Shown here piece after piece: positions 46,928 through 51,770 of a DNA stretch of 64,000 bases (the first letter of the stretch is position 1; every line of letters starts with the position of its first letter). The stretch covers positions 38,761 through 102,760 of the forward strand of contig JASLOE010000002.1 in NCBI GenBank assembly GCA_030745655.1, read 5' to 3'. Under the pieces are notes generated by a model. The model made no database searches. It was not told the origin of the DNA and saw only the letters and a list, made by a program, of their open reading frames with translations. This DNA comes from Nitrososphaerales archaeon. GTDB lineage: Archaea > Thermoproteota > Nitrososphaeria > Nitrososphaerales > JACPRH01. A program made the translations under genes and the position numbers.

Positions 46928-47045
46928 TTGCTCTTTCTCCACCTTTTTTCTAGGGTTTATTTTAACTACGGTAGAATAAGTTTTTGAAGATTTAAATGAA
47001 ATGGATTTTTATTTATCTCTAAAATTACATGGTGGATTGAAGGAG

Positions 47046-47732
47046 ATGAATAGACTTCGGTCAGTTTTCTTGTTTATTGCAGTTCTAATACTTTCTATGC
47101 AGTTAAGTTCTGCAAACATGCATGAATGGGAGTCAAAGCCACAAATAGTTTGGGTAGATAACGCTCAAGGTGAAACTGTCCTAATAATAACATTCGACTT
47201 CTCAGAAAAGTCGGATCCTCCTTCAAATACCCTATACCCAAGTAAGTTTCAGATCCGGACATCACTCAACGGAGTCGATTGGACAGAACTTGACCCCATA
47301 AATATCTCGCCCAGACCCACAACTACTTTCTTTAATGTAACATATAATCTTGGAAGCGAAAGTAAACCACTCCATGTTCAAGCTCGCTTGGAGGAAAATA
47401 TCCCCAATGTTCATGGCGGATGGAGTGAATGGTCTGAAACCTTTACCGTTGTACCAGGTGATACTCCAAATGGAGGCGCTGCTCAAGTAGAGAATACGGT
47501 AACCAAAACTGTCACAACAACATCTACGAGTACTCAGCTTACTACAACTACCGTTACTAGAGTTACCACGAATCTCTTGACAACGACCCTTAGAGAGACC
47601 CTTACAAAGACGACGACATCCACCTTTACGGATGAAGTTCCTATAACCGGATCCTCTGACTTAACTCTGCTTGGTGCAGGAATCGCTATAGCAGGTATCG
47701 CTATTGCCATTGCCCTTACAAGACGGAAGTAA
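47046..47732 (+). CDS. secreted protein with Thr-rich stalk and C-terminal TM anchor
   Basis: A signal peptide after ATG 47046, a beta-rich domain, a T-rich tract at 47496-47630 and a terminal LLGAGIAIAGIAIAIALTRRK. Confidence 0.5.
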   Translation: MNRLRSVFLFIAVLILSMQLSSANMHEWESKPQIVWVDNAQGETVLIITFDFSEKSDPPSNTLYPSKFQIRTSLNGVDWTELDPINISPRPTTTFFNVTYNLGSESKPLHVQARLEENIPNVHGGWSEWSETFTVVPGDTPNGGAAQVENTVTKTVTTTSTSTQLTTTTVTRVTTNLLTTTLRETLTKTTTSTFTDEVPITGSSDLTLLGAGIAIAGIAIAIALTRRK

Positions 47733-47797: not shown

Positions 47798-48259
47798 TTA
47801 ATTTTTTATAACTTCAATATTTGTCAGTGGGTATTTGCAATGATACTTTGGAACACGTTCTGATTGCATATATCTTTCTTCTATTGTGTTTGCTTTAATA
47901 AAAAATTGTTCCTGAATAGCATAATGACGATTTGACAAAGAAGCCCCTCTGCCCTCTTGATATTCAGCCCGTAAATATACAAACATTTCAATATCAACAA
48001 AATGGTCTTCATACCCAGAATTTGTTAAGGTAAAATAAGCTTCACACTTATCGGAAGATTCAATAATTGTTACATCTGAAATCGATATTGAATTTACTCC
48101 AAATATTGAATTCGATATTATTGGGGCAATGATTATTATGGATGCCACAATGATGATTACTATACCTAAAACACTGAATACAAAACGCTTCTCATCTTTA
48201 TTTTTCTTGACACTATCTGAATTTTCAAGTGGGGGTAATGAAAAAGAATAATGAAACAT
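47798..48259 (-). CDS. hypothetical membrane-anchored protein
   Basis: 153 aa with one TM helix and no family recognised. Confidence 0.4.
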   Translation of the reverse strand: MFHYSFSLPPLENSDSVKKNKDEKRFVFSVLGIVIIIVASIIIIAPIISNSIFGVNSISISDVTIIESSDKCEAYFTLTNSGYEDHFVDIEMFVYLRAEYQEGRGASLSNRHYAIQEQFFIKANTIEERYMQSERVPKYHCKYPLTNIEVIKN

Positions 48260-48412: not shown

Positions 48413-49117
48413 CTATTCTTTATTCTGAATATTTTCTTTCTTGTTATTCTTCTTATAAAGAATTAATGATCCAACTGCAGTTATGCCTACAATGATTGCA
48501 ACAATTATGGGTATGGTCCAATTAGTAGATGAAGGCAGTAAATCCGAAATATCATTCACTAAGTCATTTGGATCGAGAAATTGTCCAAGATACATTTTAC
48601 TAACTGTTAGATCGGTATCTAAAAGATACATGAACATTCCATGAGAAAATAGTCCTTCTACAGTTTTCTCATATGTTAATCCAAGAGATTCAACTGCATC
48701 CTTAATTTCGTGTTCATCTTGAGATCCAAGAAACTTCCAATTAGAAAGGTCTGCTTTATGAAATAATGCGTAATCTTTCAATATTTCCGGTGTATCTTCA
48801 ATATCAAAAGAAATCGTTACAAACATCACATCATCTTTTAAGGTCTCACCCAACATTTCTTGTGCTTGCCTTATCTTTGTAGTTTGAAGGGGGCATACGT
48901 CTGGACATTTTGTGTACATAAAAGAAATTACTATTACTTTTCCATGAGCACTTTCAAGATTAAATGTATCTCCGTTATGATCTGTTAATTCAATGTTAGG
49001 AATAGCTTCTCCAATCTCAAGAATTTTAACTGGATCTTCTCTTTCATGTGCCAAGATTGGCATTAAGAATATTCCAAATAAGATTAGTATCAAAAAAGAA
49101 TAAATAATCTTTTGCAT
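48413..49117 (-). CDS. SCO1/SenC family copper chaperone / thiol-disulfide oxidoreductase with C-terminal TM anchor
   Basis: It has FMYTKCPDVCP (CxxxC), a downstream His (FSHGMFMYLLD) and a signal peptide. Confidence 0.8.
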   Translation of the reverse strand: MQKIIYSFLILILFGIFLMPILAHEREDPVKILEIGEAIPNIELTDHNGDTFNLESAHGKVIVISFMYTKCPDVCPLQTTKIRQAQEMLGETLKDDVMFVTISFDIEDTPEILKDYALFHKADLSNWKFLGSQDEHEIKDAVESLGLTYEKTVEGLFSHGMFMYLLDTDLTVSKMYLGQFLDPNDLVNDISDLLPSSTNWTIPIIVAIIVGITAVGSLILYKKNNKKENIQNKE

Positions 49118-49362
49118 AATCCAAAATAATCTCCAATTAACTTAGATAATAAAGTTTTTAGTTAGCTCCAACATCCTGGAAACATTTCTCAATAATTCTA
49201 CTGTGAAAGGTTGTTCCAAGAAATTGAGATATCTAAATTGCAACCAGACCTTCCACCAGGATGTAGTGTGGCATTTATCTTCCACAAAGTAAACAAATCA
49301 AAATAGGTCTTTACGATAATGACCCTGTTAACTTAAATAACAAAGTTCCAGCACGGATATGT

Positions 49363-49423
49363 GGCGGGTAAGTGGAGTCACCTCCACCCGTTCCGCCTAA
49401 CAAACCCCGGTGTAGTGAGGTGA
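49363..49423 (+). promoter_or_regulatory. structured GC-rich 5' leader of queT-queC with SD and upstream anti-SD copy
   Basis: An outer helix GGCGG (49363-67) / CCGCC (49393-97) encloses the hairpin GTGGAG-TCAC-CTCCAC (49372-49387). CACCTCC can alternatively pair with the SD GTGAGGTGA (49415-49423), which lies 7 nt before the GTG start at 49431. Confidence 0.4.
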
Positions 49424-49430
49424 AAATTAA

Positions 49431-49904
49431 GTGGAAAAATGGGAAATAGCCTTAGGTTCAACTCTAGCTGCTCTATATATTATTCTTGTAGTGGGACTAG
49501 GTCCACTTAGTTATCTCCAGATTCAGTTCCGTGCAGCCAACATACTTCTAGGTATAATTCCTATAGCAGGCCTTCCTGCAGTCTTCGGAATTACATTAGG
49601 TGTTTTAGTGGGTAACATATCGAGTCCACTTGGACCAATTGATATGCTAAGTGTAATTCCAACATTCTTCGGATGTTTAACAATATATTATTTGAGAAAA
49701 GTAAGTGTTTTAGCTGGACTTACAGTGTACACTGTAATAATATCACTTTGGGTTGCATTCATACTTCAATATGTACTGGGTCTTCCTTACTTGATCACTT
49801 TTCTCTATCTACTTATTGGAGTAGGTGTGGTAACAATAGGTTTAGGCTACATACTTTATAAAACACTCCTCAAATTTGGAGGCGAGAAACTATGGCATCG
49901 ATAG
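49431..49904 (+). CDS. queT: queuosine/archaeosine precursor transporter QueT-like membrane protein
   Basis: 157 aa with 5 TM helices. LQIQFRAANILLG...GNISSPLGPIDMLSVIPTF resembles the QueT (DUF988) pattern. It overlaps queC by 13 nt. Confidence 0.6.
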   Translation: MEKWEIALGSTLAALYIILVVGLGPLSYLQIQFRAANILLGIIPIAGLPAVFGITLGVLVGNISSPLGPIDMLSVIPTFFGCLTIYYLRKVSVLAGLTVYTVIISLWVAFILQYVLGLPYLITFLYLLIGVGVVTIGLGYILYKTLLKFGGEKLWHR

Positions 49905-51068: not shown

Positions 51069-51770
51069 TTGTCATCAAGTAAACGTTCTAATATTTTTAA
51101 TCGTTCAACATTAACACAGTTTTCTCTGGTGATATTGATAGTGATAATTGTAGGATTGATACTTTTCAGCTACCCTGATCCGTATGCACCACTTCGTCCT
51201 CAGGAACAATACAGTCTTTTTGCCAGAACGGTACTTGTTACAGACGCAGACGGTTTAGGAAATAATGTTACATATCTAGTTGGTGGGGTAGAAATAAAAA
51301 TGGATCTTGTAACATCAAGTGGTCTACGTTACGCATTAAGCATAGAAACGAACTCATCTGGTGTAGCTGTAATCAACATAACTTCCGGTTACTACCGAAT
51401 ATCAGTTTCTGATTGGTGGAGTGGATATATATTGTTAAATAAACAAACTACCATAAATATCACAAAACATGATTTTACACAACAACCTTCATCCTTGGAT
51501 ATCTTTTCATTATCTAGAAACTGGACAATCTCTGCAGGTGCTATACTTGAAGCATCATACGAGAATAAAGCAGGAATTCCAATTGAAATAGATTCTGTAA
51601 TTATCGCCAATGAAAAGATTTTCAGACCACGTCAAGGGGTCGAACCAGCATCTGAGTGGCGAGGTACATACACAGTCCCAAACAATGTATCTGTCCCATG
51701 GTCTGCAGCTAACAAATCTCTGATGGTAACCCTAAAGATATCATACACTGAGGTGAGCATTCATCATTGA
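51069..51770 (+). CDS. membrane-anchored extracellular protein (first gene of the MoxR cluster)
   Basis: 233 aa with an N-terminal TM helix and a beta-rich body. The start is TTG. Confidence 0.45.
   Translation: MSSSKRSNIFNRSTLTQFSLVILIVIIVGLILFSYPDPYAPLRPQEQYSLFARTVLVTDADGLGNNVTYLVGGVEIKMDLVTSSGLRYALSIETNSSGVAVINITSGYYRISVSDWWSGYILLNKQTTINITKHDFTQQPSSLDIFSLSRNWTISAGAILEASYENKAGIPIEIDSVIIANEKIFRPRQGVEPASEWRGTYTVPNNVSVPWSAANKSLMVTLKISYTEVSIHH

Follow-up and report, generated by a model that had tools for sequence, protein, structure and literature searches.

A conserved pseudoknot-forming leader of archaeal queT and queE operons as a strong candidate for an undescribed class of preQ0 riboswitch

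In bacteria, queT and queC are established targets of preQ1 riboswitches (PMC11625349, PMC5372724). The pocket of the class I RNAs is built in an H-type pseudoknot in which an A-rich loop L3 occupies the minor groove of helix P1 and a uridine of L1 together with an adenosine of L3 completes the binding site, while specificity is provided by a cytosine directly before the 3′ strand of P1, which pairs with the ligand and is part of a UC dinucleotide in type I and of AC in types II and III (PMC11625349). With respect to archaea, a census from 2017 found thiamine pyrophosphate (TPP) and fluoride riboswitches to be essentially the recurrent classes (PMC5473149), a review of the preQ1 family from 2024 makes no mention of this domain (PMC11625349), and the archaeal TGT inserts preQ0 (7-cyano-7-deazaguanine) (PMC5372724). 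Here, a leader element is described that precedes the genes queT and queC in a stretch of 64,000 nucleotides from a Nitrososphaerales archaeon (GenBank assembly GCA_030745655.1, contig JASLOE010000002.1, positions 38,761 to 102,760 of the forward strand), the whole of which is called the window and numbered from its first letter. The core of the element comprises about 60 nt, it is known in more than 150 distinct archaeal leaders from metagenome-assembled genomes (MAGs) of Bathyarchaeia and Nitrososphaerota, and comparative evidence makes it a strong candidate for a class of archaeal preQ0 riboswitch that has yet to be described.

The initial annotation of the locus had pointed to a GC-rich leader consisting of an outer helix, an inner hairpin and a tail, in which an anti-Shine-Dalgarno (anti-SD) sequence might pair either within the hairpin or with the Shine-Dalgarno (SD) sequence of queT, and had taken it for a possible translational riboswitch responding to a 7-deazapurine. 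Inspection of the sequence recovers every one of these parts at the positions given there. The G + C content is 0.60 in 49350-49409 as compared to about 0.25-0.40 in the flanks, the outer helix GGCGG/CCGCC (P1) and the inner hairpin (P2, with the arms GTGGAG at 49372-77 and CTCCAC at 49382-87 around the loop TCAC at 49378-81) consist of canonical pairs throughout, the tail TAACAAACCCCGG occupies 49398-49410, and GTGAGGTGA at 49415-23 in the SD region is a near-duplicate of the hairpin arm. The pairing of CACCTCC with the SD is likewise canonical and extends to 13 bp (49378-90 with 49408-23). The comparison with Rfam that had been proposed (Rfam 15, cmscan, E ≤ 10) gave no match to preQ1-I, preQ1-II, preQ1-III or any other family, neither in the region 48800-49800 of the window nor in 15 diverse copies of the element (40 kb in total). 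No riboswitch for preQ1, preQ0, archaeosine or QueT in archaea or Bathyarchaeota is described in the literature searched, which covers few subscription journals, in agreement with the remark that preQ1-class riboswitches are not established in archaea.

A BLAST search of 60 relatives with the 91-nt leader revealed that the central ~60 nt are 85-90% identical in genomes from five further families of this order, and a 20-base IUPAC pattern built from these copies matched at least 120 stretches in a collection of species-representative genomes. Among the matches listed, about 108 are archaeal and carry the full flanking consensus GGCGGGUGAGUGG ... GGAGG, their hosts being MAGs labelled Bathyarchaeia/Bathyarchaeota, Nitrososphaerota/Nitrososphaerales or Thaumarchaeota from soil, peat, sediment and thermal sites; 12 bacterial ones among those listed lie in GC-rich DNA without the flanking consensus and were discarded as chance matches. 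Using a covariance model of the element (R1), a single copy was found in the window's own genome. Within a sample of 151 genomes from the class the element is present in 16, with 0/80 in a family of complete 1.1-1.8-Mb genomes, 6/9 in a second family and 9/10 in a third, and in a sample of equal size from the phylum R1 matched 31/151 genomes, 27 of them at E below 1e-6. At 18 QueT loci from motif-negative families (L199-L216) the model gave nothing better than E 1.5 with its filters off, and the upstream regions of 16 of these loci have no structured leader in common, the other two carrying a different motif (motif B, see below). In two divergent copies, L193:1501-1562:+ and L194:1502-1563:-, P1 and AAACCCC are retained, as is the pairing of anti-SD and SD (AGGGAGG).

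The genes downstream of the element belong to a single metabolic context. For 150 non-identical leaders the downstream open reading frames (ORFs) were walked and clustered, and representatives were named by Pfam and NCBIfam. The first gene codes for QueT in 119 leaders, for a QueE-like radical-SAM enzyme in 10 (best matches to QueE models at ~1e-30, below the equivalog cut-offs), for an ECF-S-like multi-pass membrane protein of ~240 aa in seven, and for QueC in three. All leaders with a callable downstream ORF (144/144) are followed by a gene that serves the uptake or synthesis of 7-deazaguanines (queT, queE, queC or the ECF-S-like membrane gene), and in the phylum sample every strong match to the RNA is located directly upstream of the QueT gene of that genome. 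Operons starting with queE, including those of the order queE-(GAT-)queC, where GAT denotes a glutamine amidotransferase, are preceded by the element, too; in the queE-led operon L064:3723-5192:- the second gene codes for a 489-aa glutamine amidotransferase-QueC fusion (GATase_7 + QueC), an architecture that in Crenarchaeota is known from an alternative archaeosine synthase. The gene for the ~240-aa membrane protein (e.g., at leaders L012:1558-2277:+, L051:5724-6557:-, L093, L097, L148 and L149) in most cases has a 95-aa ORF and QueC downstream of it. This protein has no match in Pfam or NCBIfam, is placed by an Atlas feature search in the vicinity of bathyarchaeotal 'ECF transporter S component' clusters (scores 0.91-0.93), and may be a new S component for 7-deazaguanines ('memX'). 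Homology with QueT was considered and rejected, as the similarity to the QueT profile comprises only 24 N-terminal residues at a probability of 7%.

Related leaders provide comparative support for three helices, namely P1, P2 and a long-range helix of 10-13 bp in which 5′-CCUCCACCCG-3′ pairs with 5′-CGG-n-GU-n-GGAGG-3′, i.e., with the end of the tail, the linker and the SD (13 canonical pairs in the window, 10 bp in the family). In A1, a MAFFT alignment made without fitting to any structure, 96.2% of the cells of P1 and P2 are paired as compared to 43-73% in slid controls, and there are 27 double-change cells as compared to 3.2 in shuffles (0/500). The outermost pair of P1 occurs as GC (60), AU (11), GU (6), CG (3), UA (3) and UG (3), and the pair of G5 with C (pair 8-41) never varies, being GC in 88 rows, while the second pair of P2 is UA in 91 rows, GC in 13, CG in four and AU in one. 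For P1 together with the pseudoknot, 96.8% of the cells are paired and 80 double-change cells compare to 19.4 in shuffles, these counts coming from an alignment that was fitted to the long helix and therefore leans to it. Of the family-wide pairs of the SD helix, five of seven show compensatory changes, the compensating variants being UUCCGAC:GUCGGAA, CUCCCA:UGGGAG, CCACC:GGUGG, CCUCCCA:UGGGAGG and CCUCCGC:GCGGAGG. The long helix is supported independently by a duplex test in which partners are swapped among 18 sequence types, native partners averaging -14.0 kcal/mol and swapped ones -12.6 +/- 0.46 kcal/mol (z -3.0, 43/20000). In line with what the initial annotation would lead one to expect, the helices are thus conserved and covarying, with compensatory changes in all three. 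An alternative inner helix, GGGUG:CACCC, was rejected since it is broken by the variants GGGG:CCCC and GAGG:CCUC.

Several unpaired positions are conserved as well. Loop L1 is 6-15 nt long and starts with the five bases GTGAG in 99 of 135 distinct leaders, L2 is UU in 122 and AU in 13 of them and never has a C, and L3, which has a length of 10 nt in 85/135, consists of a variable A/U stretch followed by an invariant AAA(C/U/A)C(C/A). The tail had been likened to the A-rich tail of class I preQ1 aptamers, and this likeness stands as far as the A-rich L3 and its invariant AAA are concerned, but the CGG of the tail and the linker are additionally paired and contribute to a long knot. The near-invariant unpaired bases (GU in L1, UU in L2 and the A/C run in L3) all meet at the junction between P1 and the knot, and because they do so, and because preQ1-I and SAM-II-like RNAs hold their ligands at this place, the junction is a candidate for the binding pocket. 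As a separate observation, the base at 49391, the first of L2, varies together with the end of L3 at 49405-07, UU occurring together with CCC (91), ACC (16) or UCC (15) and AU with UCA, UCC or CCA in 12/13 cases, which may reflect either a tertiary contact or a lineage effect and is not Watson-Crick covariation.

The 3′ arm of P2 (49382-87) is at the same time the central part of the anti-SD strand, so that hairpin and SD helix have four to six nucleotides in common; as the same nucleotides are used, P2 and the pseudoknot exclude each other. The exclusive pairings that had been noticed at this single locus are both conserved and both accompanied by compensatory changes, and position 6 of the anti-SD strand (the base after CCUCC) covaries with both of its partners. 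P1 and the long helix together make up an H-type pseudoknot. According to nearest-neighbour energies for the window, P2 alone accounts for -8.5 kcal/mol, and P1 plus P2 reach -18.1 kcal/mol as compared to -7.6 kcal/mol for P1 plus -13.9 kcal/mol for the long helix when no penalty for the pseudoknot is applied, which makes the two states roughly equal in stability.

These properties can be combined in a mechanism in which the mRNA would start a few nucleotides before P1 and the C-rich strand in the loop of P1 would have two possible partners. With no ligand bound, this strand would form P2 with the G-rich beginning of the loop, the SD would be free, and queT-queC would be translated. In the presence of the ligand it would instead pair with the CGG of the tail, the GU of the linker and the SD to yield the H-type pseudoknot with, in the window, 13 bp, and the ligand might stack at the junction of P1 and the pseudoknot (L1 GU.., L2 UU and the end of L3), stabilise the knot and thereby hide the SD. 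From this arrangement we infer that the ligand-bound knot is the OFF state with its SD hidden, and the direction of the switch as well as the binding place have this same standing. A promoter-like box is found at a matching distance: in 145 distinct upstream regions the A+T content peaks at 0.85 at -31 to -28 from the first base of P1, and octamers resembling a TATA box have their centres at -26 to -33. Given such a box ~27 nt upstream and the usual archaeal spacing, the transcript is predicted to start at about 49360-49364, at the foot of P1. At the other end, the element ends in the SD and the start codon follows 5-10 nt further downstream in nearly all copies, the SD GAGGUGA of the window ending 7 nt before the GTG.

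As to the ligand, the window's own genome (89% complete) codes for QueT, QueC and a TGT with a 528-aa open frame, and no QueD, QueE or QueF was detected in it. Among the motif-bearing genomes of the phylum sample QueD is found in 4/26 and QueC in 12/26, and no strong motif-bearing genome has a match to the QueF family; a family with the complete de novo pathway (QueC 19/19, QueD 19/19) has neither QueT nor the element. By gene content, the element thus seems to occur mainly in salvage-type genomes unable to make preQ1, and the presence of queT-queC without QueD and QueE suggests salvage of CDG (7-carboxy-7-deazaguanine) or preQ0 and not de novo synthesis. Since no QueF was found in the motif-bearing genomes and the archaeal TGT inserts preQ0, this compound is the most economical candidate ligand. 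The original idea of a 7-deazapurine riboswitch is supported with respect to regulon and switch architecture and is modified with respect to the ligand, preQ0 being likelier than preQ1.

A conserved structured 5′ leader, one metabolic regulon and an expression platform, by which riboswitches are generally recognised, are all found in this element, and the view that it is a translational platform gains support from the sequence analysis through the exclusive association of more than 140 leaders with que genes and the covarying sequestration of the SD. It is therefore considered probable that the element represents an undescribed class of riboswitch, acting on translation in the OFF direction, and that its ligand is preQ0 or a closely similar 7-deazaguanine. 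A more far-reaching proposal would make it the fourth class of 7-deazaguanine riboswitches, specific to archaea, tuned to preQ0 and widespread in Bathyarchaeia as well as in Nitrososphaerota that do not oxidise ammonia; on this view it would control salvage transporters, the ligand stabilising a long pseudoknot in which the SD is buried and with which a built-in anti-anti-SD hairpin competes. For this proposal the balance tips only slightly to the affirmative.

A number of observations weigh against these conclusions. In single-sequence folding, the stability of the 106-nt region does not exceed that of its dinucleotide shuffles (z -0.46), and because this fold carries no information, the evidence beyond chance rests on conservation and covariation; in these counts, related sequences are not independent, and those for the pseudoknot have the bias mentioned above. 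RNAalifold on A1 returned a 3-bp CCG:CGG helix alone (-0.44 kcal/mol), as a predictor of nested structures cannot deal with helices that cross or compete. The crude partner-swap duplex test gave no support for P2 (z -0.3), since the C-rich strand offers the G-rich arm many pairing registers; P2 rests on the column counts because this test does not separate it. The divergent copies L193 and L194 have AAAA instead of the CGG of the tail, and the CCG:CGG segment of the knot is thus dispensable in them. In the phylum sample, 47 of the 74 QueT-bearing genomes have no detectable element. The transcript start is deduced from the TATA-like box, and a binding site for a protein would be an equally good explanation of the near-invariant sequence. 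Finally, the dinucleotide before CCGCC is UU (122) or AU (13) in 135/135 distinct leaders and not the UC or AC of preQ1-I.

This last point bears directly on the first alternative, according to which the element is a divergent true member of preQ1-I by common ancestry, with an expanded L1/P2 and with the first C of CCGCC acting as the specificity base above a P1 of 4 bp. Topology and order of elements are indeed the same (P1 of 5 bp, A-rich L3, tail paired to the loop, SD in the second helix), the target genes are identical, and as G5 and the first C of CCGCC never vary, the 4-bp register is compatible with the data and its 'UC' would fit the rule for type I. However, the register of maximal pairing always has a U before the 3′ strand of P1, RF00522 is not matched at E ≤ 10 in the 1-kb region of the window or in the 15 diverse copies, the second helix has 10-13 bp instead of 3-4 bp, and L1 comprises 6-15 nt with an alternative hairpin, which makes membership in preQ1-I unlikely.

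Still less probable is a leader operated by a protein or a tRNA and by no small molecule, in which, e.g., the archaeal TGT would bind the conserved unpaired bases and shift the balance between P2 and the pseudoknot. The near-invariance of these bases across two archaeal classes would be explained in this way, the TGT, a recogniser of a structured G-containing loop, is encoded in the genome, and natural riboswitches are rare in archaea (PMC5473149). On the other hand, no gene for a candidate regulator accompanies the element, its operons consisting of transporter and biosynthesis genes alone; the clustering of conserved bases at the junction, the A-rich L3 and an SD within the knot are the architecture of pseudoknot riboswitches for small molecules, and in bacteria the same regulon is controlled by ligand-binding RNAs. 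A similarly low probability is assigned to a riboswitch for another ligand such as CDG, the archaeosine base, bacterial preQ1 or queuine, or guanine-type purines. This would be in accordance with the lack of QueD in 22/26 motif-bearing genomes, with the U in place of C at the preQ1-I specificity position, and with the fact that about half of these genomes carry queC beside queT without the de novo pathway, which suggests that CDG or another precursor is imported. It fits less well with the occurrence of the element before queE and queE-(GAT-)queC operons, in which preQ0, as the final product of the pathway, is the natural signal for feedback, and with the finding of no QueF, and hence of no preQ1 synthesis, in motif-bearing genomes. 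Very improbable, finally, is a ligand-independent structure inherited with queT (a constitutive damper of translation, an mRNA-stability element or an RNA thermometer), since, although SD-masking helices can act as thermometers and several host MAGs come from hot springs by their record titles, soil, peat and sediment MAGs carry the element as well, four functionally linked gene families in differing operon orders follow it, and its unpaired positions are conserved far beyond the needs of a helix.

The features of the locus are compiled in the table below.

Table. Predicted parts of the leader and the genes it precedes (window coordinates).
Feature	Position	Strand	Remarks
TATA-like box TTAAATAA	49333..49340	+	centre ~27 nt 5′ of G49363
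P1, 5′ strand GGCGG	49363..49367	+	partner 49393-97
Start of L1, GUAA (consensus GUGA)	49368..49371	+	G and U near-invariant, unpaired (alignments A1, A3)
P2 hairpin GUGGAG-UCAC-CUCCAC	49372..49387	+	putative 'ON' alternative; takes up the anti-SD strand
Pseudoknot, 5′ strand (anti-SD strand) UCACCUCCACCCG	49378..49390	+	overlaps loop and 3′ arm of P2
L2, UU	49391..49392	+	immediately 5′ of the P1 3′ strand
P1, 3′ strand CCGCC	49393..49397	+	column covariation
L3, A-rich, then C-rich UAACAAACCC	49398..49407	+	invariant core AAA-(C/U/A)-C-(C/A)
Pseudoknot, 3′ strand CGGUGUAGUGAGGUGA	49408..49423	+	contains the SD GAGGUGA, 49417-23
queT, GTG start, 157 aa	49431..49904	+	PF06177, 2.2e-19
queC, 218 aa	49892..50548	+	PF06508, 2.9e-64

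The genes queT and queC share 13 nt, there is no ORF of at least 50 aa on the opposite strand at the locus, and the upstream neighbour of the leader is a divergent SCO1/SenC gene. Three further ORFs in the surroundings, 47001-47732 (+), 47798-48259 (-) and 51069-51770 (+), code for proteins of 153-243 aa without a Pfam or NCBIfam family.

At QueT genes without the element described so far, a second conserved leader of ~105 nt, motif B, was met (L214:253-360:+ in genome G238, the minus strand of L207 in G276, and L217-L228). It precedes queT or genes for transporters of the Vut_1/YhhQ type in MAGs of Hecatellales, Methanomethylicia, Nezhaarchaeales and Bathyarchaeia and is rare, being found in 2/151 genomes of the phylum sample. 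In its P1, GGCGG and CCGCC pair around an 8-nt loop, G-NN-GAGCU, while its tail UUAC(C/U)CC pairs with a downstream GGAG, GGGG or UGGG and encloses a stem-loop with a GGAUGA loop; next come an invariant GAAAUCAACC and then an anti-SD:SD hairpin. In nine sequences, 16/28 predicted pairs show compensatory changes, and no match to motif B was found in Rfam. The hairpin GGCGGG-NNGAG...U-CCGCC and the tail UUAC(C/U)CC are present in motif B and in the main element alike; if this core is indeed common to both, one aptamer core would have been wired to two different expression platforms.

If validated, the element would add to the archaea a riboswitch class with hundreds of representatives and a natural case of control by masking of the SD, and it would offer a handle on the management of archaeosine precursors in uncultured Bathyarchaeia and their relatives, which apparently proceeds mostly by salvage. 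It might furthermore provide archaeal genetics with a compact preQ0-responsive part, and the comparison with preQ1-I would show whether the pseudoknot solution arose twice or is ancient.

Amongst the described systems, SAM-II, SAM-V and fluoride riboswitches resemble the archaeal element in that a pseudoknot stabilised by the ligand sequesters the SD, whereas sequence and regulon are unrelated and there is no Rfam match. Class III of the preQ1 riboswitches (RF02680) is likewise a leader of the 7-deazaguanine regulon with a pseudoknot and an SD/anti-SD pairing, but its model does not match either, and its SD is located in a separate helix more than 40 Å from the pocket (PMC11625349), while the SD helix of the archaeal element would stack directly on the presumed pocket junction. 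Class II (RF01054, the COG4708/queT motif of, e.g., Lactobacillus rhamnosus and Streptococcus pneumoniae) also precedes queT, contains the whole SD in a pseudoknot helix and has an extra hairpin within the knot region (PMC11625349). Yet RF01054 has an HLout fold with P1-P4 in which the embedded P4 hairpin coexists with the SD-containing P3, whereas hairpin and knot of the archaeal element are exclusive; in addition, its covariance model gives no match, it comprises ~80 nt as compared to ~60 nt, and it is confined to Bacillota. The closest likeness is to preQ1-I (RF00522; leaders of queT in Thermoanaerobacter tengcongensis and of queC in Bacillus subtilis), with which the archaeal element has in common an H-type pseudoknot on a 5-bp P1, an A-rich L3 after P1, a tail that pairs with nucleotides of the P1 loop, an SD in the second helix, target genes of the queT/queC type and the proposed translational OFF logic (PMC11625349). 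In contrast to preQ1-I, it fails the RF00522 covariance model, its second helix is bulged and comprises 10-13 bp as compared to 3-4 bp, its core has ~60 nt and an L1 of 6-15 nt with a competing hairpin as compared to ~34 nt and an L1 of 1-2 nt, its L3 ends in an invariant C-run, and its likely ligand is preQ0. The archaeal element would thus work like preQ1-I but is not a demonstrated member of that class.

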